Virus record (IMG/VR): IMGVR_UViG_3300017589_000282
Coordinates: 1 to 55,424 of that record
Length of the DNA stretch: 55,424 bases
Reading direction: 5' to 3' (one strand)
Source: a virus
Lineage: Duplodnaviria; Caudoviricetes
Below, piece after piece: positions 1,021 through 34,509 of this stretch. Each line of letters opens with the position of its first letter. The stretch's first letter is position 1. Both the position numbers and the translations under genes were made by a program. The notes under the pieces are model-generated. The model was not told the DNA's origin and made no database searches. It saw only the letters and a program-made list of their open reading frames with translations.

Positions 1021-1045
1021 AATTGGATTTATTTAGTAATTTTTT

Positions 1046-5712: not shown

Positions 5713-5736
5713 TATACAATATTATTTTAACTTTCG

Positions 5737-5744: not shown

Positions 5745-5862
5745 GCAAATAATACATATTAAGCAATAAGATTGTTATTAAATTAATAATAAAGAAATTT
5801 TTAATGAATATTTTTTTATAACAAAATTACAATCTTTTTTTGAAGGAGTAACAAAGAATATT

Positions 5863-11100: not shown

Positions 11101-14100
11101 AAAAAGCAGGGATTCAAAGAACAGCTCAACAACCTATTTTTGAGACAGCAGCAGCTGAAACAGCAATCCAACCAATCACAGGAGCAACCGATACAGCAAC
11201 CGATACCGGAGGAATAGAGTTACAACCGGAGATTATACCCGAAGAATTCCAGGAGCAAGAACAAGAACAGCCGGAAGAACTAGAATATACTCCGGAAGAG
11301 ATGGCCGAAATTGATGCGGCCGTATCAGACAACCGTCCTTTGATGGACGTAATTAAGGAGGTAGCCCAATCGCATGAGATAACACAAGCTGAAAAGCAGG
11401 TAAACATTGATCCAACCGAAGCACAGAAAGAAGCCGGGAATTACAAAATGGGGCATGTTTCCATTAATGGCTTTGATGTTACCATTGAAAACCCGAAAGG
11501 CTCTACAAGGTCGGGTGTTGATGCAGAAGGAAAACCCTGGTCCATTGATATGGCAAACTCTTACGGCTATATCAAGGGTACAAAAGGCAAGGATGGTGAT
11601 CATGTTGATGTGTTCGTGGGAAATTCTCCTTTATCTGACAAAGTGTTTGTTGTTGACCAGATAAATAAAGACGGCAGCTTTGACGAACACAAGGTTATGA
11701 TGGGCTTTAACTCAATCGAGGAGGCACAAGCCGCATACCTTGCAAACTATGAGCAGGGATGGACCGGATTAGGCTCAATCACTGAAATGTCGGTAGATGA
11801 ATTTAGATCATGGGTTAAAGATGGTGTAAAGAGTGATCCTGTTGTTGAAGTTGTAGAAGAACAAGCAAAGCAACCAGTTCCTACCGTAATGGATGAAGCT
11901 AAAGAAGCGACCAAGAAATTGGATGTCGAAGATTCAAAGAATAAGCCTTCTGATCAAATACCTATTGATAATAACATACAACCTATATCCAGTGAAGAGG
12001 TTCTAGGAGTGCGTGGCGAGACTAATAAAGCAAAATCGGTAAAGAGCAAAGCAGCTCCTTCTAATGATGTTTCAGTACAAGCTGAAAAAATCGAAGACTT
12101 TGGAGAGAAGATTGGTGGAGCAAAAAAAGATCTTGTTAAAGAATACAGGGATAGAATGGGCCGGGTAACTGAAGATGATGTCCTAGAACTCCCGTTGTCT
12201 AAATCATTTCCAAGACCAGACTTTAAAAAGTTAGTTGAAGAGGGTGTGATTACAGAGAACCAAGCTATCTATATGAGCTACTTATACGATAAAATAGAAT
12301 CAAAGCCAAGACAAGCGAATAAAGCAGGACATTGGGCGTCCAGAGTGCACGATGTTATAACTATGTTCAATGAAACGGTTGACGGGAAGTCTTCTCCTAA
12401 TTTGATGGAGGATGCTATAAATAAGATGCGCGGATACAACCCTGTTGTTGAATTAGAAATGACAGCTTACATGGATATTATGAAGAAGATGGGATTTCCA
12501 AATAATCCTGTCACATTAGGACAATATAGCATAACTCAACTTTGGAATGGTTCATGGTTTTATTTGATGAAAGGAAAATATGTTGTTAAGAAATCTCAGG
12601 ACTATAAAGAGATCGTAAATATGCTTGCCGAACTTCTGGAACAACCAAAAGCTAAAAAAGAGGTAAAGCTATCAATTTACAGAAGCCGCAAATCTGGACT
12701 GTATTATATTGGGAAGTCGATTCCAGGTAAAGACCCGGTAAAACTAAGCAAGGATTTCAATGAGCAAAAGGAGGTGGTTCAATACCTAAAAGACAACAAT
12801 GCAGAACTTGTACAGCTCTGGGAGAAGATGAATGTCAACCCAGAAGAAAGACGAGAATCAAACAGAACAAGGAAAGGAACGGATTGGAGAGGCAAAAAGG
12901 ATGTTACCCCGGAGTTGTTTGGGAATACATTTGGATTTAGAGGAGTAGAATTTGGCAATTGGGTCAATAAATCTGAAAGACAGAGTGCTTTAAATGATGC
13001 GTATGATGCACTCATGGACTTATCTTCAATCATTGGTGTATCTCCAAAGGCACTCTCTTTAGGAGGAGGATTAAGCCTTGCATTCGGAGCAAGGGGTGGA
13101 AGCAAAGCGTCTGCTCATTACGAACCAAGCAAAGTTGTTATAAACCTTACGAAGACAAAGGGAGCAGGGTCTTTAGCGCATGAATGGTTCCACGCTCTTG
13201 ATAATTATTTCTCAAAAAGAAGAGGTGAGAATGGCGAATTCATGACAAAGAATGCCAACAAGAGGAATAACGACACTACAAGACAAGAGCTTTTGAATGC
13301 CTTTGAAGACCTCGTGGCTACTATCTACGAATCAGATATGAGAAGAAGGTCAAACAGATTGGATGCTACCAGGTCAAAAGCCTATTGGGGGCAGAATGTG
13401 GAAATGGCAGCGAGAGCTTTTGAGAGTTATGTTATAGATAAACTCAATTCGAGGAATGAGCAAAATGATTATCTGGCCAACGTAAAAAGCATGAATGAGT
13501 GGTCGGAAGGTGGTGCGTTCGACATCTCTTCTTATCCATACCCAAATGAAACTGAATCACCTGTAATAGGAGAGAAGTTTGACCAGCTCTTCCAGACAAT
13601 CGAGGAAAAAGAGGATGAAGACGGTAATCAAATATTATTCAGAGATGGCGCTTCCGAAACTGACAAAATCAAAGCGGAAGCTGAAAAAAATGGAACGTTC
13701 TTGAAAGCTCCGAACGGAAAAGGCTCAATTTTAAATGAAAAACAGTGGTTGCATGTTCGTACTAAAGCATTTAAAGATTGGTTTGGAGATTGGGAAAAGG
13801 CTTATCGGATTGAGAAATTGCGTAAAAGTAACCCGGTAGAAATTACTGGAGATGAGATTGAACCTAGTAATGACCTTAAACAGTATAAGAAAAACGCTTT
13901 AGAATATGGAAAAACTATTCGTGGAGAGTATACAAATAAAGATTCCGGAGCATCTATCATTGTTTCAGCTGGAACAAAGCGTGGCGGTATAAGAGAAATT
14001 TTACAGCATGATTATAAAGATATCGAACATTTGCAGAGTATTGCCGCTATACCAAAAATTATTGAAGATTCCATATTTGTTGAGGAACTAGAAAACGAGG

Positions 14101-17100
14101 ATTCAAAAGCTCCGGATGTTTCTGCTTATCATTACTACGTGTGCGGATTAAAAATAAATGATGCTGATTACACTGTAAAGGCTGTAGTCGCTGTTTCAAA
14201 AAATGGAGAAAGATACTATGATCATAAGTTGACTAAAATAGAAAAGGGCAAACTGCTATCAACTTTACCCGAAATACAAAAATCGGGAGAAGAAAGCAAC
14301 CAACCCCTTTCCGACATCAAAGATAAAAGATTAATTTCAATATTGAAAGTTAATTCTTCAAAAGTTGTAGATGAGAACGGGGAACCGTTGGTGATGTATA
14401 GAGGTCATGACGCAAGTCAAAACTCATACTCTACAAAGCTAAATACGCCAACATTCACTTCAAGCAAGGAGGCTGCAACCGTATATAGCGAAGATCACGA
14501 AAACGGTGTGGTTACAGATGCTTTTGTAAACACAAAGAATCCTTTAAGCATTGGTGACGAATACGGCTCTGTAACAATATATGATTTGAAAAGTTTATTA
14601 CCTGTAAATGTATTCGAATCTATCGCTTCGTCCGTCAGATGGATGTATTCTGGAGATCATGCCACGCTTAAAGAAGTGCTTGAAGATGCTAAGGACAATA
14701 AGAGCGCACTAAAAGAGGCATACACGGAAACGTTTTTAATTGCAGATAATAGGGATTTTGTAGAGTGGGCACAAAGTCAAGGCTATGATGGCTTTATTTA
14801 TAAAGGCTTTTTCTCTGATTCAAATAGTTTGGACGATGATTTTCTAAGTGAAATTAGACCATTCAATGAGAATCAAATAAAATCATCAACGGATAACAAC
14901 GGAAACTTTGATTCATACAATGATGACATTCGTTACAAAGAAAATGCGGATAAACAACGAATGTCCGAATGGCTTTCCAAACAGCGGTACAATTCCGCTG
15001 AGGTTGAAAAGTTGTTCGGACATGACACAAATATACTAGATAGTTTTGATAATTCAGACTTAGAGCCTGGGAATATTTCATCAGAGGTAGAACAGTTATA
15101 TCCTTCACAGAATAATTCGGTTCGTATTATTCATGATATTAACGATCAGTTTAATAAGGAATTGATTCAACAGATTGAGGGTGTACTTCCAAAAGATCAT
15201 ATTTATAAGTTGGGTATGCCTAGTGAAGCCCTTCTGAGTGCAGGTATACCCAGTTTCCCAATTGAATTAAAGTCTGAAAGATTAGGCTACAAATCCACTT
15301 CCGGAAAACATGATTACGATATATCTGAAGTTGTTGGACTGCCAAACGCAATAGCCAATCCTATCGCTATTTTTAAATATGGAGATGAAAAGAAAGCCCA
15401 AAATATAATCACCGAACTTGAACATAATGGAGAAAAGTTTCTTGTTGGAATTTCAATTACTCCAAAAATAAAAGGGCATGTGCTCGAAATAAATAGCGTA
15501 AGAAATGTATTTCCCAAAAATAGTGAAAGTATAGTTGACTGGATTAATGGGGGAAAGATGCTTTATTCAAATAAAGAAAAGCTCCTAAGTTTCCTTGACC
15601 AACAGCGTACTAATCACGCTGACGTGGCTTTCGTCTTTCCGAACGAATCGGTGAAACAAGGATACCCAGAAGCTCTATTGTCTGCCACAAATATAGTGAA
15701 TAGTTTTGAAAATCCAACATTGGAGCAAGGTAATATTTTATCTGAAATCGAAACTCTGTCATCGTTATTAAATACTCCTGTTCGGATTGTTCGTGATGTA
15801 AATGAGATATCAGACAAAGACAGGGATATTGAAAAGCGTATGCGTAAGTCTAGGGGATGGTACGATACCAGAACGGGGGAAGTGGTAATTGTTTTTCAGA
15901 AAAACAGAAGTGTAGCCGATGCACAGAAAACAGTATTACATGAGGTTGTTGGCCATCTTGGATTGAGAAAGTTGTTAGGAAGTGAGTTTGCACCCACTAT
16001 GGAAAGTATCTTTGATTCTCTTCCAACAGATTTGCAGGTTGTTTTAAACCAGAAGTACGGATCAAAAGTTTTAAGTGCGGAAGAATACGCTTCTACCATG
16101 GCTGAAACAATGAGTGATCCAGGTATTATTCAGCGTATCGTTTCAGCATTCAAGGATGCAATGAGAAAGTTGGGTGTCAAACTTAAAATGACTGACGGGG
16201 ATATAATGAATCTGTTGTGGAAGTCTAAAAACAGACTGACAGACGGTGATACGGCTTTTGAAATCATGGGAAAGATGTCTAAAGCTGAATCAGTGAAAAA
16301 GGAAACCGAATCATTTGACCGGGTGTTTAGAGATTCGGCTACATTGAATGATACGATGGATGAAATGAGCGATGATCCGGTGATAAAAGCTGAGATGCAC
16401 GCTTCCATTAAATCTAAATCGTTCCAATGGCAAGAGGGATACCAGGATCGCATGTTAGCTGTAAAGAAGTTGCAAGAGTTATTGGAGAAACACACAGGAA
16501 AGAAGCTGCCGGATCATATGAATGTGTACATCTTTGAGAATACTCTATCAAGCAGAAACACATACGAGATAGAACAGTACAAAGAATTGTACACGAACAA
16601 GATGATGGAGAATGTGAAAGCCTTTATCAGTAAAGGTTACTCAATGCCGGAGGTTGAAAACTATGTGATAGCAAAGCATGGTCTTGAACGTAATGACTAT
16701 TTTAGAATCAATGCCTTGTTGGATGAAGTCAATGCTCTTGAAAAGAATGATGCCTACCTGGAATGGCTTCCGGATGCAATACGTTCCAATTCTGAAAAGT
16801 TCCAGGCTAGAGTTGCTAAAGATAAAGCCGCTTTGCTTGAAGAAATAGGAACCCGGAAGTTCTCGGAGATAGAGGGCTTATCAATGTTCCCTATTGAAAA
16901 GATAAGACAGAGATTAGCTAAAAGGGACTTTGCCGGGATAACAGCCCTTGAAAAAGAATTGGAGATGTCCGCACAGGAATACATTGATATAACAGAGGGT
17001 AGGTTTGAAAACGAAACGAAAGAGCTGTGGAAGTCAATCAATGCAGCTACAAAGGCTTCATTAAAGAAGTGGTTTGATAGTGGAATGATAAACAAAGAAG

Positions 17101-19448
17101 TTTATAACAAGATCAACGGGATGTACGAGTATTATGTACCATTAAGAGGCTTTGCGGAAGATACAGCCGCTGACGTGTACGAATACTTCACAGAACAGGT
17201 AAGCCCCTTTAATAATCCGCTAAAGAAAGCGTATGGACGTAAGAGTAAACCCGAAACCCCATTCGCTCACATTGTTTCAGCCGCAGGAAGTTCTATTGTA
17301 GGAGGAAACAAAAACATCATGAAGTTGCACCTATTGAGATTGGCGCAAAACAATCCATCTGACTACATGACCGTAAACAAAGCCTGGTATGTAGACAACG
17401 GACAGATTGATCCGGAAACAAATAAACCGATTTATGACGCTGTATTCCCGGAGTATTCGGAGAATATGGATGAGTATAGAGCAAATGTAGAGGAATTTGA
17501 GGCTGAGATGGAAGAACTCAAAGCACAGGGTATAGCCTTCAAGGGTACAAAGAAGTTGAAGCCAGGATATAAGATATCAAAAGTTGAAACGAGCGAACAC
17601 ATGGTAAGGGCTATGTTGAACGGAGAGGAACATTTTATCCTGGTACATGGTGATCCTCGTGTTGCGCAGGCTATAAATGGGTTAAACGACACTGGTAGAC
17701 AGGAAAGCAAGTTTATGAAAGCTGTTGCATGGAGCAATAGACAGATGGCCGCAAACTTTACCACTAGAAACCCGTCCTTTATTGCGAGTAACCTTGTTCG
17801 TGACGTTGTGTTTGCTTCTACGGCTCTTTCCGTAAAGGAAGGATCAAAGTACACATTCAAGTTTGAAAAGAATGTATTCGGAGGAAAAGCCGGGGGCGCA
17901 CTTGGTAGATTTTTGAAAGGGAAACCAAACTACAACAATGAAGCGGATGTATTCCTAAAAGAGTTCCTGGAGAATGGGGGTGAAACAGGCTATACGGCTT
18001 TGTACAATATTGACAAGTACAAAAAGATGATTGCCCGGAGTGTTGAAGTTGGAACGAAAGCGTCTATAAAGGATAGCTACATGAATGTTGTAGATATATT
18101 CTCAAATGGCGCAAGATGGGCGGAGGATTTATCCAGGTTCTCTGTTTACATGACGAGCAGACAATCGGGACGTACTATTCTAAAATCGGTAAACGATGCA
18201 AAGGAAGTAACCGTAAACTTTAACCGTAAAGGTTCGGGTTCCCATGGAGCCGGGTTTGCTAGAGGTGCTTACTTATTCTTTAATGCTGCAATCCAATCAC
18301 TAAGTAATGCCGCTACCCTGATCAAGAAAGAACCTGTTAAAGCATCGGCTGCCATGTTGGGATTCGCTTCTGTTGGCTATCTGATTCCGGTTATTGTGTC
18401 TATGCTTGGTGATGATGATGATTTGGAGAGATACAACAATCTTCCGGATTACGTTCGTAAGAATCACTTATGTATTCCAATGGGGGATGGCTTCGTTAAG
18501 ATACCGTTACCAATTGAATTAAGGGCTTTCTACGGACTTGGAGATCAATTGTACAGAATGGCTACCGGATCGGATCACATGGGCGAATCGCTTCTTAATA
18601 TGGCTTTGTCGTTTATGGATATGCTGCCTCTTAACCCTGTAGGTGGAGGTGATACCTTGGGTAATCTTCTTCCGGATGCCCTTGTTCCTGTTTATCAATC
18701 ATACGGATCAAATAAAGACTTTACAGGCAAGCCAATCGCAAGGGTTACTCCGTTCAATGAGTTTGATCCGGAATATCTGAAAGTGTATAAGAATGCCAAC
18801 GTGATCCCGGTCTATGTTTCCCAATTGCTAAACAGTGTTTCCGGTGGGGATGATGTTAAAAAGGGAGGCTATGATAAGGCGATGGGTATATTCGGAACAC
18901 CCGTAAACTTTTCTAACCCGGCTGCATTCGAACATTTGTTTGAATCTTACTTCGGGGGATTGTGGTCTACTACGAATCAGCTAATGAAAACAGCAGCCAA
19001 TGGGGTAGGGATTGCGAAAGATATAGCAACCGGAGAAGATAACTTTGATTGGAGCGAAAGCCAGGGATGGAGAACAACCCCAATTCTGAACAGATTCATT
19101 GATGATGGAAAGTCTAACGGAGCTATGTCAAAGATTAACGACCGTTATTTCAAAGCTGTAAAGGAAATGAAAGAAACGAAGTATCTTATCAGAGGCTATG
19201 AAGAAAAGTTAGACAGCAATCTATCAGTGATTGAGGCTATGAAAGTATCTTCTAAGATTGCAGAGCTGGAATCCGGCAAGATTGGAGAGAGAATGTATCT
19301 GATTGAAGATTATACTAAAGATATTGAATCATTAAACAAAGAATCGCAGGATGTCCCTAAAGATAAACGAAGCGAAATTGTTGAAACGATGAATGATCTT
19401 AAATCAAGGATGCTTGAAAAGCTGAAAGAGATAGATAATCGAAATTAA
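8148..19448 (+). CDS. Giant polyvalent virion/ejection protein: InPase-like, LPD1/zincin, ART-like, LPD3, MuF-C-like, metallopeptidase and LPD38-like domains
   Basis: PTEAQKEAGNY...DGDHVDVF...FDEHK (~11410-11815); FRGVEFGNW...AHEWFH (~12880-13620); APNGK...WFGDW plus SKVVDENGEPLVMYRG...GYDG...NQIKS (ART-like, ~13700-14935, split); YYDHKLTKIEKG (LPD3-like); LPNAIANPIAIF (MuF-C-like, ~15140-15570); HEVVGH (15939-15956). Confidence 0.85.
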   Translation: MAIDLSKLKSVQLASKKSEVDVDSLVDNLFAEDSTEQVAQEPIIKATSPAVPNTKEEVQPKEDGFWNTYLGDTIEKIGAGLNNYVSNTAGWMDKGARKINDLVGDTSGAHTSESGKPVSGAFGDISKSAKKVATGLRADSDRYKGKKFGELWKDDKAAAIGDIFLQASESLAPSMMAAFTGPLGVPSLGASAANEKYDVLDESNPNMAEVPKMINALLTGTAEAGSEYLGSVPVGKWLKGMYSKVGSEAAQAQLQKGLAGWIGNNAKKLGVFFPPVAEGTEEIASQVAENITDWATGARPDFNPMEGVLESFVYGAGGGAQFSAMSLPSYGMRVADKAKTGYDLRKATKSFDSLFQDENAANVVSGLNSMSTEEQASWLEAVSQSPDYSEEQKKAAADLLQSSLSYNARRSPEEYKADKENRDQLFIDTEMRNFDSYLSPMIAENGMIQQVKIGDEEVYITKGDISLTANEVGKPVFDPINSSDQLYYTDKDGNTQVTSSKMVTEVLDVQDSEALRQQHLQNVMYGLEQRNNQSSQMAQEVTIENGDPVQFLDPSTGKMVEGIAVDTALPDVIQMEDGRVIPREQVMPNLQSKDAVINPPADETKNDPILAQEGVAVEEEQAVPGSPVIDYLKDKEGNADYDNIDDPLEYAAALTAEYPGEELDIINQDLEFANQELESAKNVKSAIESRKKMKVAQDKIDRLNSFKAVFDTNNKVVDPIEQADPLEDDQESIQDIDLSQLSEPERRVHISQNSNDPLELADLYDQVKDEFEVSQMMPWEAALVGRKISKDSFIENSDKNNVTGAIAKSWFADKDHARKAGLDVIAAELSEYGTPVTENDIVEFVLSHPNNNVKKTNQVAIDTNRRFKEVVKALTGENVGGLESTSGKLVLAGLKAGVRSEQEKQAQPFNSYTVPDAVLNFFEETGLSPDDFDSFEALNDAISIELEKGTFVFPLGESDLQTINNIVQHGIRQQGNYQDFASRVEKAGIQRTAQQPIFETAAAETAIQPITGATDTATDTGGIELQPEIIPEEFQEQEQEQPEELEYTPEEMAEIDAAVSDNRPLMDVIKEVAQSHEITQAEKQVNIDPTEAQKEAGNYKMGHVSINGFDVTIENPKGSTRSGVDAEGKPWSIDMANSYGYIKGTKGKDGDHVDVFVGNSPLSDKVFVVDQINKDGSFDEHKVMMGFNSIEEAQAAYLANYEQGWTGLGSITEMSVDEFRSWVKDGVKSDPVVEVVEEQAKQPVPTVMDEAKEATKKLDVEDSKNKPSDQIPIDNNIQPISSEEVLGVRGETNKAKSVKSKAAPSNDVSVQAEKIEDFGEKIGGAKKDLVKEYRDRMGRVTEDDVLELPLSKSFPRPDFKKLVEEGVITENQAIYMSYLYDKIESKPRQANKAGHWASRVHDVITMFNETVDGKSSPNLMEDAINKMRGYNPVVELEMTAYMDIMKKMGFPNNPVTLGQYSITQLWNGSWFYLMKGKYVVKKSQDYKEIVNMLAELLEQPKAKKEVKLSIYRSRKSGLYYIGKSIPGKDPVKLSKDFNEQKEVVQYLKDNNAELVQLWEKMNVNPEERRESNRTRKGTDWRGKKDVTPELFGNTFGFRGVEFGNWVNKSERQSALNDAYDALMDLSSIIGVSPKALSLGGGLSLAFGARGGSKASAHYEPSKVVINLTKTKGAGSLAHEWFHALDNYFSKRRGENGEFMTKNANKRNNDTTRQELLNAFEDLVATIYESDMRRRSNRLDATRSKAYWGQNVEMAARAFESYVIDKLNSRNEQNDYLANVKSMNEWSEGGAFDISSYPYPNETESPVIGEKFDQLFQTIEEKEDEDGNQILFRDGASETDKIKAEAEKNGTFLKAPNGKGSILNEKQWLHVRTKAFKDWFGDWEKAYRIEKLRKSNPVEITGDEIEPSNDLKQYKKNALEYGKTIRGEYTNKDSGASIIVSAGTKRGGIREILQHDYKDIEHLQSIAAIPKIIEDSIFVEELENEDSKAPDVSAYHYYVCGLKINDADYTVKAVVAVSKNGERYYDHKLTKIEKGKLLSTLPEIQKSGEESNQPLSDIKDKRLISILKVNSSKVVDENGEPLVMYRGHDASQNSYSTKLNTPTFTSSKEAATVYSEDHENGVVTDAFVNTKNPLSIGDEYGSVTIYDLKSLLPVNVFESIASSVRWMYSGDHATLKEVLEDAKDNKSALKEAYTETFLIADNRDFVEWAQSQGYDGFIYKGFFSDSNSLDDDFLSEIRPFNENQIKSSTDNNGNFDSYNDDIRYKENADKQRMSEWLSKQRYNSAEVEKLFGHDTNILDSFDNSDLEPGNISSEVEQLYPSQNNSVRIIHDINDQFNKELIQQIEGVLPKDHIYKLGMPSEALLSAGIPSFPIELKSERLGYKSTSGKHDYDISEVVGLPNAIANPIAIFKYGDEKKAQNIITELEHNGEKFLVGISITPKIKGHVLEINSVRNVFPKNSESIVDWINGGKMLYSNKEKLLSFLDQQRTNHADVAFVFPNESVKQGYPEALLSATNIVNSFENPTLEQGNILSEIETLSSLLNTPVRIVRDVNEISDKDRDIEKRMRKSRGWYDTRTGEVVIVFQKNRSVADAQKTVLHEVVGHLGLRKLLGSEFAPTMESIFDSLPTDLQVVLNQKYGSKVLSAEEYASTMAETMSDPGIIQRIVSAFKDAMRKLGVKLKMTDGDIMNLLWKSKNRLTDGDTAFEIMGKMSKAESVKKETESFDRVFRDSATLNDTMDEMSDDPVIKAEMHASIKSKSFQWQEGYQDRMLAVKKLQELLEKHTGKKLPDHMNVYIFENTLSSRNTYEIEQYKELYTNKMMENVKAFISKGYSMPEVENYVIAKHGLERNDYFRINALLDEVNALEKNDAYLEWLPDAIRSNSEKFQARVAKDKAALLEEIGTRKFSEIEGLSMFPIEKIRQRLAKRDFAGITALEKELEMSAQEYIDITEGRFENETKELWKSINAATKASLKKWFDSGMINKEVYNKINGMYEYYVPLRGFAEDTAADVYEYFTEQVSPFNNPLKKAYGRKSKPETPFAHIVSAAGSSIVGGNKNIMKLHLLRLAQNNPSDYMTVNKAWYVDNGQIDPETNKPIYDAVFPEYSENMDEYRANVEEFEAEMEELKAQGIAFKGTKKLKPGYKISKVETSEHMVRAMLNGEEHFILVHGDPRVAQAINGLNDTGRQESKFMKAVAWSNRQMAANFTTRNPSFIASNLVRDVVFASTALSVKEGSKYTFKFEKNVFGGKAGGALGRFLKGKPNYNNEADVFLKEFLENGGETGYTALYNIDKYKKMIARSVEVGTKASIKDSYMNVVDIFSNGARWAEDLSRFSVYMTSRQSGRTILKSVNDAKEVTVNFNRKGSGSHGAGFARGAYLFFNAAIQSLSNAATLIKKEPVKASAAMLGFASVGYLIPVIVSMLGDDDDLERYNNLPDYVRKNHLCIPMGDGFVKIPLPIELRAFYGLGDQLYRMATGSDHMGESLLNMALSFMDMLPLNPVGGGDTLGNLLPDALVPVYQSYGSNKDFTGKPIARVTPFNEFDPEYLKVYKNANVIPVYVSQLLNSVSGGDDVKKGGYDKAMGIFGTPVNFSNPAAFEHLFESYFGGLWSTTNQLMKTAANGVGIAKDIATGEDNFDWSESQGWRTTPILNRFIDDGKSNGAMSKINDRYFKAVKEMKETKYLIRGYEEKLDSNLSVIEAMKVSSKIAELESGKIGERMYLIEDYTKDIESLNKESQDVPKDKRSEIVETMNDLKSRMLEKLKEIDNRN
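11053..11217 (+). CDS. Candidate overprinted 54-aa ORF in the +1 frame inside the giant gene
   Basis: MESDNKETIKTSLQELKKQGFKEQLNNLFLRQQQLKQQSNQSQEQPIQQPIPEE, preceded by A-rich aacaacatagtacaac, in a linker region of the main protein. Confidence 0.35.
   Translation: MESDNKETIKTSLQELKKQGFKEQLNNLFLRQQQLKQQSNQSQEQPIQQPIPEE
14233..14325 (-). ncRNA. Candidate antisense sRNA with its promoter, embedded after the LPD3-like domain
   Basis: TATCTTTG at 14318-14325; 17-position outer stem 14241-14257/14295-14311 with 16 pairs, G-U only on the - strand; inner CCCGA/UCGGG hairpin; U-rich 3' end. Confidence 0.6.
14961..15035 (-). ncRNA. Candidate antisense promoter plus hairpin cassette; paralogue or relic of the 15568-15695 cassette
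   Basis: TATATTTG at 15028-15035; stem 14961-14980/15004-15023; inner CAGCGG/CCGCTG hairpin. Wobble pairs here mostly favour the + strand, so strand is uncertain. Confidence 0.45.
15568..15695 (-). ncRNA. Candidate antisense sRNA with its promoter, embedded after the MuF-C-like domain
   Basis: TATATTTG at 15688-15695; 20-position outer stem 15578-15597/15657-15676 with 19 pairs including 4 G-U on the - strand; inner hairpins CAGCGT/ACGCTG and TTCGT/ACGAA; U-rich tail. Confidence 0.6.
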
Positions 19449-20009: not shown

Positions 20010-22034
20010 TTAAAAAGTTGATTCTCCTACTACTATTTTCTTTTTCGATCTTGCCAATTTATCTTGCAGTACGGGTAGGGGCAATTCGTAACAGATATGC
20101 AACCCTGCCATACGAGTGATCAAAACATCATCATGTTTCCCGGCTATAGCCCCAAATGATCCGTTTTCTTTCTTTTCAAACCACCTGGCTTCATTGACGG
20201 CTTCTTCGTCCCGTTCTATATACCCGTTTTCACGAAGTATAGTCGTGTATGTGTCAATTACCATAGTCTTTGTAGACCTGTTCATATGGAAGCCCCAAAC
20301 AGGAGGAACCCCCTCTATAATCTTATCTGCCGGAGTACGGCTATATAAGTTGTCGTAATACTGTGAGATCGTATCGAATATAAACTCTGTATGGTCCCCG
20401 TCTGTATCTCCCTTTCCCTTGTCCGTTTCATGAGTGTTACTTTCAAATACAAGTAAAGCATTGCCGTAATAGGTTGCTATCTGTGCTGACATCCATACAA
20501 GTATATCATGGTCTACGTGTCCTCTCCATTGTGCAACAACTACCGGAACATCTCCGTACATCATCCAGTAACGGTCAAAAACAGTTATTACAGAGTAGTC
20601 GGCTTTTTTTCCTCGTCCCCCAGTATCAACAAATACGACATACCTGTTTTTAATATATTCTTCCGGATATTCCCATATCTTTAAACACCCGTCTTTTTTC
20701 TCTACGAGCTTTATATCTTTTAGCACATCTTTTCTTAGCTCAACTTTTAGTTTGGCTTGCGATGCTGATTTCTTGGCTGTGAGTTCTCCAACGGCTATTG
20801 GAGCCTTGCATGTTTTACGTAGATTTTCCACATCTTCCATGTCAAACACTGGCTGACCGGAGTTTTGGAATGCCTCTACATCATCACTTGGGTATTCTTC
20901 TTTCATGGATGAATCACTAGGTAACTGCCCTCGCATTCCCCTATACCAGTTTATAGCCTGCAATGTTGCACCCTTATTGAATAACCACCATTCGTATGGC
21001 GACATGGATTTTATAAATTCTTCCTCTGGAACATGGAGTTCTTCGGAGTATATATCAATTAGAAACCATTCAACAAATACGGGTACGAAAATTGATACAC
21101 GTTTTGCCGGATTTTCTTCTGTTGCAAGGAGCCATTGAGTATGGAAGAAGTTTCCAATACCCTTTGCTGTTGATTCGTAAACAATGGCCGTATTGGCAAC
21201 ACGTGGGATAATAGAACTTACAGAGCCTATAAGTTCTTCCGGCTTGTTGTTGTCTGTGCGAGGGAAGAATGCTACTTCCGAAAAGTGGACCAGGTAACCA
21301 GACTGTGATCGAACAGAATCCGGTTCAACTGCAGAACCTACCGTAATACGGCAACCCCTTGATTTTACTTCCTTGATGTTTTGCGTACCTTGGTATGGCG
21401 TAAGTTGGATTGGCCCGTTTATTTCCGGATAGTCCTTTACGGCTCTCTCGAACATACCCCGGATATTTCTCGCTGCATCTTGTTTGTGTGCACAAATAAT
21501 ACTACTCCAGTTCTTTACATGTACTAGCTGAATCCATAAGAAATAAAGCTGTGTAAGTGTTGAACCACCCCACTGACGAGCCTTTAAGAGTATAATTCTT
21601 ATCGGCTTCCCGGCCATACGTAACTTTTCCAATTGTTTTAAAAGTCTACGTTGTCCCCGGTTGGCTTTAAAAGGTATATCTCCACCAGAAATTTTATCCT
21701 GTATGACCAGGGATATGTATGCGTAATACTCGAAGTCGTATTTAATCCTTATCTCGTGAAGACCTACGCATATCAATTTTATATTTTCTATCGATGATTC
21801 TTCTCCCTGTTCTTCGAGTAGCTTTTCTATTGATCCTGCACGTTGTAGCTTTTTGCATAAGGATTCATTCTTATACATAGCTTCCGGGATATACTGTTCC
21901 GGTATAGGATGATCGGGGATAACAAGTTTAACCCTGGGAAATGTATCGCTACCCTCCCCGGTTACCGGATCGTACACCTTTCTTATTTCGTGTAGCCTCC
22001 GGTTGTTTTCCTCTATTACCTTTTTTACGTTCAT
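20010..22034 (-). CDS. terL: Terminase large subunit
   Basis: Walker A LKARQWGGST; Walker B VHFSEVAF; YESTAKG; nuclease motifs VDTGG...ADYS...HDDVL. Confidence 0.92.
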   Translation of the reverse strand: MNVKKVIEENNRRLHEIRKVYDPVTGEGSDTFPRVKLVIPDHPIPEQYIPEAMYKNESLCKKLQRAGSIEKLLEEQGEESSIENIKLICVGLHEIRIKYDFEYYAYISLVIQDKISGGDIPFKANRGQRRLLKQLEKLRMAGKPIRIILLKARQWGGSTLTQLYFLWIQLVHVKNWSSIICAHKQDAARNIRGMFERAVKDYPEINGPIQLTPYQGTQNIKEVKSRGCRITVGSAVEPDSVRSQSGYLVHFSEVAFFPRTDNNKPEELIGSVSSIIPRVANTAIVYESTAKGIGNFFHTQWLLATEENPAKRVSIFVPVFVEWFLIDIYSEELHVPEEEFIKSMSPYEWWLFNKGATLQAINWYRGMRGQLPSDSSMKEEYPSDDVEAFQNSGQPVFDMEDVENLRKTCKAPIAVGELTAKKSASQAKLKVELRKDVLKDIKLVEKKDGCLKIWEYPEEYIKNRYVVFVDTGGRGKKADYSVITVFDRYWMMYGDVPVVVAQWRGHVDHDILVWMSAQIATYYGNALLVFESNTHETDKGKGDTDGDHTEFIFDTISQYYDNLYSRTPADKIIEGVPPVWGFHMNRSTKTMVIDTYTTILRENGYIERDEEAVNEARWFEKKENGSFGAIAGKHDDVLITRMAGLHICYELPLPVLQDKLARSKKKIVVGESTF

Positions 22035-22492
22035 AAAACAACAATAATTCCCAGTATCAGTGAAATTATATGCACTACGTTGTTGCTGCCATTAAAGAAT
22101 CCAATTAGCAAAGACACAAGTATGAGTAATATCATAAGTGCGAATTTCTTTTTGCTTGTAATCTTTAATTTCTCTCCTTTAAATGCGTGCCCGATTGTCA
22201 TTCCTATCATTGCGTAAATCATTCCGGATGCACCTACGGTAACTTTGTCGTACTCGGAGAAAAATGAAGCCAGTACAGCGATTAAGTAAGGATAGTAAAA
22301 AGCGTTACTGACCCTGTGTAGTAAATTATAAAAAGAGAGAAAAGATATTGAATTTGCTACCAGGTGTAATAACCCGGCATGTTGGAATACATACGTGAAA
22401 TGTGTGTAGATTGGCGAAGTAAGCGAATAACCTAAAGATGTGTCGAATACAAAATAAACGGCTGTAAGCATCGCTATAAATAAGTAACTCAT
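22031..22492 (-). CDS. Minimal rhomboid-family intramembrane serine protease
   Basis: FTYVFQHAGLLHLVAN (H..H..N), catalytic GASG, C-terminal NVVH, several TM helices; ATGA-coupled to terL. Confidence 0.85.
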   Translation of the reverse strand: MSYLFIAMLTAVYFVFDTSLGYSLTSPIYTHFTYVFQHAGLLHLVANSISFLSFYNLLHRVSNAFYYPYLIAVLASFFSEYDKVTVGASGMIYAMIGMTIGHAFKGEKLKITSKKKFALMILLILVSLLIGFFNGSNNVVHIISLILGIIVVL

Positions 22493-22884
22493 CTTTTTTT
22501 AATTAGTTTGTAGTATAGTAGTTCGGCTGTTCCTTTTGTCATGTAGAATTTTGGCGCAGGCTTACTAAGTACATAATCTATTGCCCCATACAACCCCCTG
22601 GTAGGTCTTATGCTTAGTTCTCGCTTTACCCGGTTTAGAATTTCGTTGTACATTTCCAGCTTTAGGCTTGATTTAATATAAGTACTTTCTCCTTTGATCA
22701 TCTGCCTAATTATTATCACACATTGATCGTGTGTTACATAAAATCTTTTGGCAGGCTGTTCCAATGCTTCAATGATCAACCTATTTTTTTTTATGAATGG
22801 AGCCATCTTCCCGTACCCCTTTAAGACACGATTGTAACTCTCCATGAAGTCCTGGTTCCTTTGGTTAATAAAATCAAGTTTCAT
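22489..22884 (-). CDS. Hypothetical basic protein with an internal duplication; candidate regulator
   Basis: 131 aa, repeated PAKRFYV / PAPKFYM. Confidence 0.65.
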   Translation of the reverse strand: MKLDFINQRNQDFMESYNRVLKGYGKMAPFIKKNRLIIEALEQPAKRFYVTHDQCVIIIRQMIKGESTYIKSSLKLEMYNEILNRVKRELSIRPTRGLYGAIDYVLSKPAPKFYMTKGTAELLYYKLIKKR

Positions 22885-22949
22885 AATATAGGATTTAGTA
22901 TTATGTCAACGAGGATAACTATTTAAAACCACAAATGCAATTGATTCCT

Positions 22950-22991
22950 AATTTACGGATTAGAATAAGCCTCTATCATCCTTTATTTCGT
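22950..22991 (+). promoter_or_regulatory. Late motif AATTTACG-N26-TATTTCGT
   Basis: 22950-22957 and 22984-22991, upstream of the scaffold/capsid operon. Confidence 0.7.
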
Positions 22992-23018
22992 TCGTGTGAT
23001 TTCACAAAATAAAATAGC

Positions 23019-23756
23019 ATGGAAAAAGAAGAACAGGTACAGGAAGAAAAAAAGTTATCTAATCGGGAGCAATACCTAGCCAGAATGAAAGCCAGGAGAG
23101 GTAATGTCGATTATGAAGATGAAGAAGCCCGTTATGGAGCTTTCTTGCAAGACGACGACGACCGGGAATCCGCTTTAACAAAGCATCGGGAATCTGACGC
23201 TAAGTTGTCGGGAATGTTTAAAAAAGATCCTCGGTTTGCAGCCTTGCTTAATGATGCAATTGAGGGTGGAGATGTTTCTACATCATTTGTTAAGCGTTAC
23301 GGCAAAGATGTGCTTGATGCTGACGAGGAGAGTTTGGCAAAAATCGCAGAAGCAAATCAAGAGTTTCTAAACAAAGCTGCTGAAAGCGACAAACTATACC
23401 AGGAACAGCAAGCCAACTTGGAAAAATCTGCAGAAGGTATGTCGTCTTTCAAAGAAGAAAAAGGAATGGATGATGACCATTTCGAGGGATTCCTCGGAAA
23501 GGTGTACGAGGCTCTCGAAGCCGGGTTCATGGGTAAGCTAACACGTGACTTTTTAGAGATATTCTACAAAGGTCTTTCATACGAAACGGATGTGCGCAAA
23601 GCTGCCGATGCAGGTCTAGTAGAGGGAAGAAACCAAAAGATCGAACTAGAGAACAAAGCCGAACAAGGCGATTCTCTTCCGAATCTTTCCGACACTTCTA
23701 AAGGTGGAAAGCCTAAGCCTATGACAAGGCCAGTTAAAAAGAATTTTTTTGATTAA
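23019..23756 (+). CDS. Putative capsid scaffolding protein
   Basis: Acidic, helical, directly upstream of the capsid gene; no protease motif seen. Confidence 0.6.
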   Translation: MEKEEQVQEEKKLSNREQYLARMKARRGNVDYEDEEARYGAFLQDDDDRESALTKHRESDAKLSGMFKKDPRFAALLNDAIEGGDVSTSFVKRYGKDVLDADEESLAKIAEANQEFLNKAAESDKLYQEQQANLEKSAEGMSSFKEEKGMDDDHFEGFLGKVYEALEAGFMGKLTRDFLEIFYKGLSYETDVRKAADAGLVEGRNQKIELENKAEQGDSLPNLSDTSKGGKPKPMTRPVKKNFFD

Positions 23757-23774
23757 CATTTTAAATAGGAATAT

Positions 23775-25145
23775 ATGAAAAAGTTTGATTTTTTGAAAGG
23801 AGGCGGCTTAGTAATGCTGCTTATCATGTTAGTATGTGCGGCATTTGGTGTCGTGGATGGTTCTGTTTTGGCTGCCGATGCTACGGCTATGGCAGGTGGT
23901 GGTGTTGCCGTAACGGGTGAAACAGTAACAACCCAGGTAATTCGTGAGAATGTAGACAGTTTACTTCTTAACGACATTGAACGAAAAGTTGTTAAGATTA
24001 GACCTATGGGTAACCCGTTGGAACAGTTGGCTCGTTATGCGACAAGACGTTCGTCTAAATCGCAGATTCACGAGTACTACTCTACCGATACCATCCCATC
24101 AGCTGCAAAGATGTCCGGTGTTTATACGGAGGAAACTGTAACTGGTGCTCCGCAGGTAACAATCAACACAACGAACAACGCTATTTTCTCTATTTACGAA
24201 ACTGTCATTGTTCCTGGCGTAAAGGGATGGAATGAAGCAGGGACTGCACAGACAGAAGAATTTCTACAGTTGTACATTGTGGATAAAGCTGCCGATGGCA
24301 AGCTGATTGTAAAGCCTGTAAACGGAAAAGTGATTGGTGCTACTGAAAATGCAATGCCAACAATTGCGGATCAAAAAGTTCTAATTCGTGCAGGTAGAGC
24401 GCACAACGAAACTGACATGAGAACAACTACTTACGCAGCCGTTCCGACAAAGAGGAAACAGTATTTGCAGATTTTTAGAGCGCAGATTGAAGAATCTACT
24501 CTTGCGAAAATGGCAGACAAAGAGGCTGACTGGTCATTCTCTGACTTGGAAGAAGAAGCAATCTTCGACATGAAGCGTGGTATGAATAAATCTTTTTGGC
24601 TTGGTGCTAAGAGAATCATCTATGACGCAAAGAAGAAAGAAGTATTCATGACTGGTGGTATTTGGTGGCAAGCAGGTAAATCCTTCTTGTATGGTAAATC
24701 AGCATTAGATACACAGTTTGATAACGACATGTTGGTCGAACTATGTAAGAAGTCATTTACTGGTAATGCCGGGAATCGTGAGAAGATTTTCATTGTAGGT
24801 TCTGACCTTATGGCTAACCTTTCTAAAATGACTATCGACAAGACAATGAACGATGAAAAGACCATGACACGATGGGGTATCAAGTTCAAAGTTATTGAAA
24901 CGAACTTCGGAACATTGCACCTGGTTCATGATGAATCATTAGACGAAATGGGATTCTCTGCAAACGGATTGATTTTTGATCCAAACTACCTACGTAAGAT
25001 CAGTGTTCATGAGCTTAAAACCCTCGACCTTGACCTTAGAAAGTCTGGAGAAAGCGATGTTGATGCTCGTACTATCAGTGAGATATCAGCTATCATTTTA
25101 CAGAATCCGGATGCTCACGTAAGAGTAATGCCAATTGCTGCGTAA
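23775..25145 (+). CDS. Major capsid protein with an N-terminal hydrophobic, signal-like segment
   Basis: 456 aa; position after the scaffold; QYLQIFR..IEES..A, FMTGGIW and TNFGTLHLV segments typical of podoviral HK97-fold capsids; N-terminus MKKFDFLKGGGLVMLLIMLVCAAFGVV. Confidence 0.75.
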   Translation: MKKFDFLKGGGLVMLLIMLVCAAFGVVDGSVLAADATAMAGGGVAVTGETVTTQVIRENVDSLLLNDIERKVVKIRPMGNPLEQLARYATRRSSKSQIHEYYSTDTIPSAAKMSGVYTEETVTGAPQVTINTTNNAIFSIYETVIVPGVKGWNEAGTAQTEEFLQLYIVDKAADGKLIVKPVNGKVIGATENAMPTIADQKVLIRAGRAHNETDMRTTTYAAVPTKRKQYLQIFRAQIEESTLAKMADKEADWSFSDLEEEAIFDMKRGMNKSFWLGAKRIIYDAKKKEVFMTGGIWWQAGKSFLYGKSALDTQFDNDMLVELCKKSFTGNAGNREKIFIVGSDLMANLSKMTIDKTMNDEKTMTRWGIKFKVIETNFGTLHLVHDESLDEMGFSANGLIFDPNYLRKISVHELKTLDLDLRKSGESDVDARTISEISAIILQNPDAHVRVMPIAA

Positions 25146-33382: not shown

Positions 33383-33415
33383 AAACCCCCGGTCATTAAC
33401 TTGATTGGGGGTTTT
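33383..33415 (+). terminator. Intrinsic terminator of the structural operon
   Basis: aaaccccc ggtca ttaact tgatt ggggg tttt. Confidence 0.75.
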
Positions 33416-33426
33416 GTGTTTATTGC

Positions 33427-33468
33427 AATTTACGAACGTAACATTATACATTTTAATCTTATACTCGT
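33427..33468 (+). promoter_or_regulatory. Late motif AATTTACG-N26-ATACTCGT
   Basis: 33427-33434 and 33461-33468, upstream of the lysis genes. Confidence 0.65.
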
Positions 33469-33496
33469 TGAATTATTAATTACTAAAATAAGCGAA

Positions 33497-34012
33497 ATGA
33501 AAGATGTATTTGAACAGCTAGCGTTTGTTAAGCCAATGGTAGATGTCGACAACCCTAGGGTGCAGGAGGCAGGAGTGTGGGGTATGGTTTGCACATTAGC
33601 CTCTTTAGTTACCGGGGCGTTTAGGTTTTTATCGGAGGATGTTATGGGGGTGAGTATCCTTTTTACCATTATTCTTTTTGTGATAATGATTGCGGACTAC
33701 ATTACAGGGTTGAAAGCTGCAACAAAAGAGGGTGTACCAAAGAGGTCAAAAAAAGGCTTAAGGTGGGTGATAAAACTAGGCGTTTACATTATGCTTATCT
33801 CCATGTTAAGCTCATTGTGTGCAGAAAGCAAAGAAGTAGAATCAGCTTATGCGACTATGTCGCTTATTAAGATTTATGTAATGTTCCACATTTGCTTTTG
33901 GGAAATAACATCAATTGATGAAAACCTGGAACGTTTGGGGTATAGCTTCCGTATTCTAAAAATACTAAAGGAGGTTCGGAAAATATTCAAATCTAAAATT
34001 GGCGTGAAATGA
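33497..34012 (+). CDS. Holin (phage holin 4-like)
   Basis: TM helices; ADYITG..AA and EITSIDENL motifs; directly before the endolysin; ATG at 33497 chosen as start. Confidence 0.8.
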   Translation: MKDVFEQLAFVKPMVDVDNPRVQEAGVWGMVCTLASLVTGAFRFLSEDVMGVSILFTIILFVIMIADYITGLKAATKEGVPKRSKKGLRWVIKLGVYIMLISMLSSLCAESKEVESAYATMSLIKIYVMFHICFWEITSIDENLERLGYSFRILKILKEVRKIFKSKIGVK

Positions 34013-34509
34013 CAAACAAGGAATTTGCCCTTTGGGTGTATGAAGCTGCAAAGAACGTGAGTGATATTGATCCTGTATTTATAGCAGCACAGGCGGCATT
34101 AGAATCGGGGTGGGGGAAGTCCGGCATTGGAAACAATCTATTTGGTATTACAAAAGGATCATGGACCGGACCAACAAAACTCGTATTGACTACAGAATAT
34201 CTCAGCAGACCTAATATAGCTTTCAAATCTCCCGAAAGCGTGGTATCTGTGAGTAAGGTAAATGAAAAGTGCTACAAATACAAAGTGCATCGGTTGTTTA
34301 GGGTTTACGGCTCCTTAGAGGAATGTTTGGCCGATCATCTTGCCATCTTAAAGAAACCACATTTTGCAGATGCCTGGGCGTTTAGAAGCGATGCGGAAGA
34401 GTATGTAAAGAGGTTGGTGGATAATGTTGGAGGGAAATACGCTACTGCGACAAACTATGTTCCCGTAATGCATTCAATTATTAATAAAATCAGAGGGTTC
34501 GTATCATGA
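34009..34509 (+). CDS. Endolysin, GH73 glucosaminidase
   Basis: AAQAALESGWG, NNLFGI, YATA..Y. Confidence 0.9.
   Translation: MTNKEFALWVYEAAKNVSDIDPVFIAAQAALESGWGKSGIGNNLFGITKGSWTGPTKLVLTTEYLSRPNIAFKSPESVVSVSKVNEKCYKYKVHRLFRVYGSLEECLADHLAILKKPHFADAWAFRSDAEEYVKRLVDNVGGKYATATNYVPVMHSIINKIRGFVS

Follow-up and report, generated by a model that had tools for sequence, protein, structure and literature searches.

A signal-peptide-like leader on a tailed-phage major capsid protein and its possible processing by a phage-encoded rhomboid protease

The major capsid protein (MCP) of the phage studied here begins with a leader laid out like a signal peptide, and the divergent packaging operon beside it encodes a rhomboid protease, a pairing undescribed for tailed phages. 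We found nothing in print on a leader-bearing MCP processed by a phage rhomboid, and the passages searched in the paper on cultured relatives mention neither a rhomboid nor a signal peptide nor mass spectrometry. Our preferred reading, held tentatively and with somewhat less than even confidence, is that the MCP of the rhomboid clade is made as a precursor targeted to the membrane, its leader being removed or otherwise processed by the phage rhomboid. The window analysed is the whole 55,424-nucleotide stretch of IMG/VR record IMGVR_UViG_3300017589_000282. Its source is a gut Bacteroidales phage. The MCP gene is divided as follows.

23775 to 25145, + strand: MCP open reading frame (ORF), 456 aa, SU10-type
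23775 to 23876, + strand: leader, codons 1 to 34, with n-region, hydrophobic core and c-region
Residues 1 to 8: basic n-region of the leader
23805 to 23855, about residues 11 to 27: hydrophobic core of the leader, 17 residues
Residues up to 34: c-region S-V-L-A-A34, with putative cleavage before D35
23877 to 23936, + strand: Gly/Ala/Thr-rich linker, codons 35 to 54, holding Met39 and a G43 near-invariant in alignments
23937 to 25145, + strand: SU10-type MCP body (PF17236), residues 55 to 456 and stop codon

PF17236 (SU10_MCP) matched the MCP from residue 55 onwards (E 5.5e-41, 141 bits against a cut-off of 24.1), and a profile search of the body against the solved capsid protein 9in6 chain M gave E 1.1e-18. 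By family assignment the body has the HK97 fold. At the N-terminus the 15-residue Kyte-Doolittle window peaks at 3.0, from residue 13, and amongst the 51 ORFs of the window the MCP is the sole structural protein with such an N-terminal hydrophobic segment. The sequence-only reading had described a basic n-region, a helix of transmembrane (TM) length and a small-residue stretch. All three are present, but the description fell short, as the leader shows the complete n/h/c pattern of Sec signal peptides.

The leader is widely shared. A hydrophobic window of at least 2.3 occurs within the first 60 residues of 69 of 82 database MCP homologs, the other 13 comprising five N-terminal fragments, one sequence that begins inside the hydrophobic core and seven full-length leaderless proteins. 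An intact leader ORF is kept across 215 unique relatives, and leader pN/pS (0.02 in one set of close relatives, 0.27 in another) is below that of the downstream linker. By these measures the leader is translated, conserved and under purifying selection. Translation from an internal methionine, with the hydrophobic leader never made, is thus barely credible. An in-frame ATG does exist at 23889 to 23891, encoding residue 39 and not 40 as first read, but this Met39 is missing from P0009 and P0010, two of the three closest relatives (89% and 87% identical). Leaderless homologs make up 17 of 59 clusters and, in alignments, start within a few residues of the conserved leader end. The leader is thus a dispensable, separable module.

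The genes flanking the MCP are arranged in two diverging operons.

20010 to 22034, - strand: terL, large terminase subunit, 674 aa (PHROG phrog_2, E 1e-18)
22031 to 22492, - strand: compact rhomboid intramembrane serine protease, six TM segments, 153 aa (PF01694)
Rhomboid TM2: motif H38-x4-H43-x3-N47
22226 to 22228, - strand: codon of rhomboid catalytic S89, in G-A-S-G
22070 to 22072, - strand: codon of rhomboid catalytic H141
22489 to 22884, - strand: small protein, 131 aa, no TM segment (PHROG phrog_27246, E 5.7e-17, no function assigned)
22885 to 23018: intergenic region separating the packaging operon (-) from the scaffold-MCP operon (+)
23019 to 23756, + strand: presumed scaffolding protein, acidic, 245 aa, directly upstream of the MCP (phrog_22323, E 5.3e-34, no function assigned)

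The small gene is the first of the packaging operon, and its stop overlaps the rhomboid start as ATGA (tcat on the + strand, 22489 to 22492); the rhomboid stop overlaps the terL ATG in the same way (22031 to 22034). An identical divergent layout, rhomboid position included, is found in three cultured Bacteroides phages. These overlaps, together with the divergence from the scaffold-MCP operon, amount to genetic linkage, which we count in favour of our model. The position of the 245-aa ORF is conserved among relatives, and this position and its composition suggest the scaffold role. The 131-aa protein had no Pfam match and no PDB match below E 0.36; it may be a candidate terS-like protein or rhomboid partner. 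Its homologs at 31-34% identity stand before rhomboids in host-chromosome islands, and in two related loci (L167 and L168) one directly precedes terL. As noted from sequence at the outset, no prohead protease was recognised among 50 window ORFs in Pfam and PHROGs scans. To our knowledge P22- and T7-like podoviruses likewise lack one, so the absence carries little weight.

The rhomboid assignment is firm. PF01694 matched the protein with E 4.4e-14 (53.3 bits against a cut-off of 22.6) and also matched 40 of 41 phage homologs; H38, H43, N47, G87, S89, G97 and H141 are invariant in the alignment of all 41. An AF2 model (pLDDT 96.4, pTM 0.91) had GlpG chains as its top Foldseek matches, at TM 0.7, and a profile comparison with PDB GlpG gave E 6.6e-13. 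The phage enzyme shares with Escherichia coli GlpG and Providencia stuartii AarA the six-TM fold, Ser-His dyad, HxxxxHxxxN and GxSG. It differs in being just 153 aa long without a cytoplasmic domain, in its shortened L1 loop with Y-T in place of the WR motif (alignment), and in being phage-encoded, within a packaging operon. From the positive charges of its TM2/3 and TM4/5 loops the protein is predicted to be N-in, with an active site that faces the periplasm as that of GlpG does. The original description of a 153-aa rhomboid with GASG and His intact and coupled to terL was therefore accurate, and by its sequence the enzyme looks catalytically competent.

Co-occurrence was scored at 329 loci (some contigs being included twice) with an HMM derived from phage rhomboids, and a leader was called where the MCP N-terminal hydrophobic window reached at least 1.55. 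A leader-bearing MCP was present at every rhomboid-positive locus (157 of 157, in 17 of 17 clusters). In the MCP tree the rhomboid clade is monophyletic. Nested within it (support 0.92 to 0.996) is just one leaderless lineage, L017/L018 and L030, which is also rhomboid-less, its records giving no PF01694 match, one having direct terminal repeats and the other being 94% complete. Judged from the tree, leader and rhomboid were lost together once. This joint loss and the restriction of the rhomboid to leader-bearing MCPs both count for rhomboid processing of the leader, although monophyly means that the association reflects roughly one gain and a single joint loss, and hence few independent events.

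The reverse association does not hold. Bacteroidales prophage MCPs of a large sister clade also have the leader, yet the phage rhomboid is absent from the syntenic slot in L167 and L168, whose records are only 42-44% complete, and none was found at L225, L238, L209 or L023/24, where terL is in view. Five of five host genomes with sister (lower)-clade MCPs had no rhomboid adjoining terL and no phage rhomboid elsewhere. The leader thus needs no phage rhomboid. The expected co-occurrence stands in one direction only, and a leader without a rhomboid is an outcome that the sequence-only reading had set down beforehand as refuting it. The sole PF01694 matches in these five genomes were two tandem host genes, 620 kb distant in the one complete chromosome; host rhomboids were found in all five and in the B. 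thetaiotaomicron control.

All 104 unique rhomboid-clade leaders have an n-region net charge of at least +1 and a flank net charge of at most 0, a distribution that predicts N-in topology throughout. The conserved small-residue motif sits C-terminal to the helix: the leader ends in x-[MLVITA]-[MTAG]-Ala in 17 of 17 rhomboid-clade cluster representatives, with Asp/Glu next in 13 of 17, whilst their n- and h-regions diverge freely. As this conserved end lies where leaderless homologs begin, it points to a conserved site, which also speaks for the model. However, N-in charges with a motif after the helix match the layout of signal peptidase I or II substrates and are opposite to that of canonical rhomboid substrates, in which work on GlpG and AarA places the cleaved bond on the N-terminal side of an N-out helix. 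Capsid maturation by the rhomboid, as first proposed together with membrane tethering and a coupling of assembly to packaging, is supported in part: it keeps the leader, the enzyme, the co-occurrence and the joint loss on its side and has the sister clade and this geometry against it.

It is possible, if rather unlikely, that leader removal is everywhere the work of a signal peptidase of the host (SPase I or, given a lipobox, LspA) and that the rhomboid acts downstream, for example clearing a very large load of freed leaders from the membrane in a signal-peptide-peptidase-like role. Like SPase I and LspA substrates, the leader has a positive n-region and an h-region of 15-20 residues, and its site is preceded by small residues, the putative -1 position being Ala. 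It is retained in the rhomboid-less sister clade, where A-x-A-like sites are frequent and 11 of 25 cluster representatives show a lipobox-like L-x-[GAS]-C, versus 2 of 17 in the rhomboid clade. Hosts have their own proteases, rhomboids included, and such a scheme would still account for a rhomboid found only with leader-bearing MCPs, tying it to the leader without a role in maturation. By contrast, the -3 residue in the rhomboid clade is mostly Met, Leu or Val, not Ala, which is less typical of SPase I sites, and a freed N-in leader peptide would also be non-canonical as a rhomboid substrate. Nor does an export-type cut explain a cytoplasmic MCP body: unlike Sec cargo, a tailed-phage MCP needs the cytoplasm for assembly and DNA packaging, and its export is implausible.

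We regard as unlikely a rhomboid substrate unrelated to the MCP, the leader association then being phylogenetic inertia. Options would be a holin, an antiholin or a spanin, one of the gp14-like or polyvalent ejection proteins, or an envelope protein of the host, with roles in lysis timing, superinfection exclusion or host takeover. The window encodes further membrane proteins, those listed here and a 3766-aa protein containing a TM segment.

6275 to 6919, + strand: T7 gp14-like internal virion protein (PF24072, E 4.5e-6)
33401 to 34012: holin
34506 to 34877: lipoprotein

The single origin of the rhomboid on the MCP tree would allow a historical association, and the small-protein and rhomboid pair also stands alone, remote from any MCP and beside alaS/slyD-like genes of the host, in two genomes, G075 and G147:C6; G240 has a further copy, 16 kb from an MCP. 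The gp14-like protein, already named as a rival substrate from sequence, remains a candidate, with a Gly/Ala-rich hydrophobic N-terminus, a basic stretch after it and an N-out-type charge layout. This N-terminus was nevertheless kept in the L017 and L030 phages when leader and rhomboid were lost, and so does not co-vary with the rhomboid. The window and the three cultured phages also agree in placing the rhomboid in the head and packaging operon, outside the lysis cassette. It is more improbable still that the leader is retained, as a membrane anchor for MCP or procapsids or as a hydrophobic N-arm inside the capsid, conceivably touching lipid. The conserved hydrophobic core would suit this, and T4 prohead initiation is membrane-bound through gp20 and gp40. 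Head assembly there starts at the inner membrane, but the portal is tethered via a chaperone and the T4 MCP has no membrane helix. Leaderless family members starting right after the leader end argue against retention, and a closed shell would be hard to square with hundreds of tethered N-termini.

Processing by the phage rhomboid has partial precedents. HK97 gp4, T4 gp21 and herpesvirus assemblin strip MCP N-terminal propeptides, and here too the segment is dispensable in the mature shell and presumably removed; those enzymes, however, are soluble proteins that are packaged in the prohead and act once it has assembled, on propeptides that are not hydrophobic, and the window has no homolog of them. 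In staphylococcal phage 80alpha the host protease Prp cuts capsid and scaffold N-termini, a precedent for capsid processing by a non-canonical, even host-encoded, protease such as the rhomboid-less sister clade would require, although Prp is a soluble cysteine protease acting on a short, non-hydrophobic peptide without a membrane. AarA trims the N-terminal extension of TatA, and the proposed removal of a short N-terminal segment beside a TM helix would likewise activate a protein, but the leader is predicted N-in and its site follows the helix, opposite to the arrangement in TatA. In mitochondria the rhomboid PARL cleaves PINK1, and the C-terminal domain is released back to the cytosol. Our model requires the same type of event, a cut in an N-terminal helix during arrested translocation that frees a large C-terminal domain to its original side; PARL works in another compartment, is a 1+6 TM enzyme and shares homology limited to the rhomboid core, and we know of no demonstration of such release in bacteria or phages.

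Insertion of the leader into the membrane, its cleavage, the protease responsible and the way in which the MCP body stays in or returns to the cytoplasm are our inferences. In the model, the N-terminal 34 residues would guide the nascent MCP to the inner membrane as a signal-peptide-like leader, its N-terminus cytoplasmic and its helix ending at the periplasmic face. The rhomboid, made from the divergent late operon, would cut at or near the conserved x-[M/L/V]-x-Ala/Asp or Glu junction, after the Ala. One possibility is an aborted translocation in which the Gly/Ala-rich linker slips back once the cut is made. The mature protein, starting about where leaderless homologs start, would be free to assemble with the scaffold in the cytoplasm.

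The 55,424 bases of the window are the complete virus record. Its packaging and head genes lie in two divergent groups:

22489-22884, minus strand: small gene (131-aa protein), first of the minus-strand operon
22031-22492, minus strand: rhomboid, 153 aa (Pfam PF01694)
20010-22034, minus strand: terL, third gene of the operon with the small gene and the rhomboid
23019-23756, plus strand: acidic 245-aa presumed scaffold, divergent from the packaging operon
23775-25145, plus strand: major capsid protein (MCP; Pfam PF17236), after the scaffold

Both junctions of the small gene-rhomboid-terL operon are ATGA overlaps. Other genes of the window code for a P22-type portal, tail fibres, a T7 gp14-like internal protein and a holin with glucosaminidase. 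A polyvalent virion (ejection) protein of 3766 aa, at 8148-19448, combines several LPD domains with inorganic pyrophosphatase, ADP-ribosyltransferase and MuF-C domains and has a single hydrophobic segment near residue 3401. No prohead maturation protease of the HK97 gp4 or T4 gp21 type was matched by Pfam or PHROG in the 50 window ORFs, confirming what had been read from the sequence alone. By MCP identity, the nearest genome-resident relatives were in Parabacteroides (68%) and Dysgonomonas (56%), and the MCP family was present in 22 of 401 sampled Bacteroidales genomes.

Positions 1-6000 have a G+C content of 28-33%, against approximately 40% for the remaining window, and include three genes:

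4492-5712: C-5 cytosine methyltransferase
2201-4492: 763-aa protein with two GHKL ATPase domains
1299-2204: receiver-domain protein (weak match)

This region may be an acquired module of defence or anti-defence cargo. An AbiGi-family gene (abortive-infection antitoxin-like) lies at 44011-44772 on the opposite strand, inside the early/replication region. Directly downstream of the endolysin, 34506-34877 encodes a lipoprotein with a clear lipobox, a candidate outer spanin, after which two tandem phrog_19255 paralogs occupy 35311-36284.

The sole MCP candidate in the window scored 141.4 bits against PF17236 (cut-off 24.1), with the match beginning at residue 55. The profile of its family matched 9in6, 'major capsid of VP1' (E 1.1e-18), from residue 34 of that protein, and the MCP itself is a member of the SU10 family. 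Residues 1-34 form a leader in which an n-region of charge +2 precedes a hydrophobic core of 17 residues (Kyte-Doolittle 3.0); the c-region has Ala-Ala at its end, next to Asp35. A strict lipobox in this leader was ruled out, as Val precedes Cys21. A hydrophobic core like that of the window was present in 69 of 82 database MCP homologs, whilst 7 full-length leaderless homologs began near a near-invariant Gly-rich motif (G43). The 329 fetched loci held 104 unique leaders in the window's clade on the MCP tree (the rhomboid clade) and 111 in its sister clade. In two sets of close relatives, pN/pS of the leader codons was 0.02 and 0.27, compared with 0.29 and 0.89 for the next 60 codons, the latter value possibly inflated by indels. 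The internal Met, placed at position 40 by the sequence-only reading, is actually residue 39 and is missing in two of the three closest relatives, making a downstream start very unlikely. Use of the first ATG, as originally proposed, is thus borne out by the conserved core, the low leader pN/pS and the unconserved Met39. Judged by this conservation, the leader is real, translated and conserved, and it is scarcely credible that it is never translated. Searching the contigs of 24 RNA runs, most of them wastewater libraries that may be DNA, found none with half of the sampled words. We also checked two homologs with leaderless gene calls. For P0086, all 80 viral loci (64-69% identical) carried a leader and 79 carried a rhomboid, the exception (L154) having upstream sequence too short to show one. 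P0079 had no viral locus, and its best match among the 401 genomes was 56% identical.

The rhomboid scored 53.3 bits against PF01694 (cut-off 22.6; MEROPS S54 family). This domain was found in 40 of 41 phage rhomboid homologs, and a rhomboid domain was present in all 30 database homologs, which are 153-186 aa long. A profile of the phage rhomboids matched PDB GlpG sequences at E 6.6e-13. The catalytic set is complete in the window protein, with the GxSG Ser in TM4, the His in TM6 and HxxxxHxxxN in TM2. Across the 41-sequence alignment H38, H43 and N47 (TM2), G87 and S89 (TM4) and H141 (TM6) were invariant, and G148 was conserved in at least 90%. The AF2 model (pLDDT 96.4) showed a six-TM core with the helices in the expected order, and all 16 Foldseek matches at E <=0.001 were GlpG (15 E. 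coli chains and one from H. influenzae; TMq 0.67-0.76). The L1 loop is short and its WR motif is absent, the GlpG W-R aligning to consensus y-t and to Y29-T30 of the window protein. This motif has a stabilising, non-catalytic role. The TM2/3 and TM4/5 loops carry basic residues, as do both termini in relatives. This distribution implies a GlpG-like topology, with the predicted active site towards the periplasm. The phage rhomboid is thus real and looks active, with catalysis predicted from its residues; within its family it represents a new, minimal form carried by a phage.

The co-occurrence of rhomboid and leader was studied in relatives. A tblastn search of 50,697 phage records returned only three cultured relatives, the temperate Bacteroides phages PQ571263, PQ571269 and PQ571277. 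Their MCPs are 34-38% identical to that of the window and all bear leaders, and in each the small gene-rhomboid-terL group is divergent from scaffold-MCP. With the rhomboid protein as sole query no cultured phage matched at E 1e-3, because the clades are too diverged. The fetched loci were searched with an HMM built from phage rhomboids against all stop-to-stop ORFs. All 157 rhomboid-positive loci carried a leader-bearing MCP; seven first scored as leaderless were threshold artefacts (hydrophobicity 1.59-1.95). The expectation that the rhomboid would be accompanied by a membrane-helix-bearing capsid protein thus held across relatives. In ten loci terL was visible without a rhomboid, three leaderless (L017, L018, L030) and seven leader-bearing (L167, L168, L225, L238, L209, L023, L024). 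The other 161 scored loci were uninformative because a different gene order places terL beyond the fetched flanks, and one (L217), with no MCP anchor motif, was left unscored. A count of 96 loci with leader and no rhomboid was dropped, as terL mostly lay outside the 7-kb flanks of genome and metagenome loci. Some contigs entered the locus counts twice, and many of the gut contigs are nearly identical, so that cluster counts (17, 2 and 40) are fairer. One viral contig (L019) carries a perfect inverted duplication at 4005-6102, with the same ORFs on both strands, probably an assembly artefact.

On the MCP tree of 59 clusters, the 17 rhomboid-positive clusters fell in one clade (support 0.99). 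Nested within it (support 0.92 to 0.996) was a leaderless, rhomboid-less pair, L018 and L030, whose records (one with terminal repeats, the other 94% complete) gave no PF01694 match. The association of leader and rhomboid therefore comes down to roughly a single gain and a single joint loss. The N-terminus of the gp14-like protein (6275-6919) is Gly/Ala-rich and weakly hydrophobic, with a basic stretch after it (N-out-type charges), and in the homologs L339-L343 this N-terminus is conserved in rhomboid-bearing and rhomboid-less relatives alike. It had been put forward as an alternative substrate, but was retained in the L018/L030 lineage and did not co-vary with the rhomboid. Thus it is the MCP leader, not this rival substrate, that tracks the rhomboid.

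The sister clade comprises 40 MCP clusters from Muribaculaceae, Barnesiella, Prevotellaceae and other Bacteroidales MAGs, 25 with a leader and 15 without. In five of its host genomes terL adjoins a small gene with no rhomboid, and in L167 and L168 the small gene directly abuts terL. The phage-rhomboid profile gave only weak matches in these host genomes (<=27 bits), and PF01694 found only two tandem host genes in each, 620 kb from the MCP in the complete chromosome. A viral scan with the L293 MCP for further genomes of this clade returned two loci, both already in the set. A leader without a rhomboid is among the findings that the reading from the sequence alone had listed as refuting it. By its distribution, the leader arose before the phage rhomboid or is spread more widely, and it can work in the rhomboid's absence.

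Gene order in one sister-clade element, on the G006 chromosome (L252/L334, 449-495 kb), is strongly unlike that of the window. Its terL lies beside the host genes for ribosomal proteins L21/L27 and is separated by 43 kb from scaffold-MCP; the two point outward from each other, with host-like genes directly upstream of the scaffold. Three-gene islands were also found by host alaS/slyD-like genes in three host genomes: L376 742-2652 (G240), L377 8534-10427 (G075) and L380 8095-9563 (G147). Each encodes a 134-aa protein homologous to the 22489-22884 product (31-34% identity), a 190-361-aa rhomboid with intact catalytic motifs and a protein of ~160 aa. The G240 island lies 16 kb from a leader-bearing sister-clade MCP on the same contig. 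As both genes occur in these host-chromosome islands, the small protein and rhomboid look like a mobile two-gene module.

The charges and motifs of the leaders bear on what could cut them. All 104 unique rhomboid-clade leaders had a net charge of at least +1 in the n-region and at most 0 in the flank, which by the positive-inside rule predicts an N-in orientation for every one. The conserved small-residue motif, C-terminal to the helix, would then lie at the periplasmic face, the working side of the rhomboid active site, signal peptidase I and LspA. Canonical rhomboid substrates have an N-out helix with the scissile bond N-terminal to it. The predicted leader topology departs from this arrangement, and polypeptide polarity would therefore be reversed in the MCP leader. 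In line with the preference of rhomboids for a small P1 and helix-destabilising residues, Ala precedes the putative cleavage site in 17/17 rhomboid-clade cluster representatives, and Gly, Ser or Cys lies within the C-terminal half of the helix. In this clade the site has the form x-[M/L/V]-x-Ala, with Asp/Glu next in 13 of the 17. Sister-clade leaders finish with an A-[L/M]-A-like site and then a hydrophobic V/I-rich stretch. A lipobox-like L-x-[GAS]-C occurred in 11/25 sister-clade representatives versus 2/17 (weak) in the rhomboid clade. Lipoboxes of textbook appearance (L-x-G/S-C) were seen in the MCP N-termini of L266, L293, L296, L320, L324 and others, from MAGs of Muribaculaceae, Barnesiella and Prevotellaceae; the motif precedes the mature-type start by ~10 residues.

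Taken together, we tentatively favour the rhomboid as the leader-processing enzyme in the window's clade, with topology, cleavage and the identity of the protease all predicted from sequence. Exclusive pairing with leader-bearing MCPs, the joint loss in L018/L030 and the small residues at the site speak for it; the reversed polarity and the leaders found without a phage rhomboid speak against it. Instead, host signal peptidase may cut the leader and the rhomboid act downstream on it, an account that is plausible but unlikely. The n- and h-regions and the Ala at -1 fit signal peptidase I, and sister-clade leaders occur without a phage rhomboid, but at position -3 most members of the rhomboid clade have Met, Leu, Val or Ile instead of Ala. 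It is rather improbable that the rhomboid substrate is unrelated to the capsid: the association reflects about one gain and one loss, yet the gp14-like candidate did not follow the rhomboid. A leader kept as an uncleaved anchor suits the hydrophobic core, but we consider it most improbable.

A periplasmic cut would mean that the mature chain enters the translocon with its first residues at least, whilst the MCP body has to stay cytoplasmic. The least strained model would be aborted translocation, in which the leader is cut early and the acidic Gly/Ala/Thr-rich linker slips back. This would resemble PINK1 and PARL, as well as the aborted translocation of some eukaryotic proteins. A helical hairpin, whose second arm is weakly hydrophobic and would lead back into the cytoplasm, suits the window and the sister clade but fails in the BKO1-TP3 clade because the post-site sequence is polar there. 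More broadly, though we consider this doubtful, the MCP of a large family of gut Bacteroidales phages could be a membrane-targeted pre-protein whose periplasm-facing cut aborts translocation and returns it to the cytoplasm, so that head assembly is membrane-gated. A signal-peptide or lipoprotein-type leader would dock each nascent MCP at the inner membrane, to be cut in the window's clade by the phage rhomboid and in the sister clade by host signal peptidases. The leader helices so released, tens of thousands in each cell, might also contribute to membrane damage and lysis timing.

To our knowledge, tailed-phage capsid proteins are by textbook cytoplasmic and the known maturation cleavages are made by soluble enzymes, either prohead proteases or, for 80alpha, a protease of the host. 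N-terminal MCP propeptide removal is known; removal of a TM leader at the membrane would be new. Full-text literature searches brought up neither a phage rhomboid nor a leader on a capsid protein, and 'rhomboid', 'signal peptide' and 'mass spectrometry' were absent from the searchable passages of the paper on the cultured relatives. The combination of a signal-peptide-like MCP leader with an intramembrane protease in the packaging operon is thus absent from the searched literature.

The conserved leader would add a membrane step to head assembly in phages widespread among human and animal gut Bacteroidales. The natural substrates of bacterial-type rhomboids are, as far as we know, mostly unknown, and the packaging-operon rhomboid would offer these enzymes a defined and abundant candidate substrate. 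The cultured relatives with the window's layout, BF1-TP2, BKO1-TP3 and BS-TP4, make a direct test possible. Should the rhomboid prove irrelevant to the leader, the questions become why a capsid protein is built like a secreted protein or lipoprotein, and what a late, strictly conserved rhomboid cuts.
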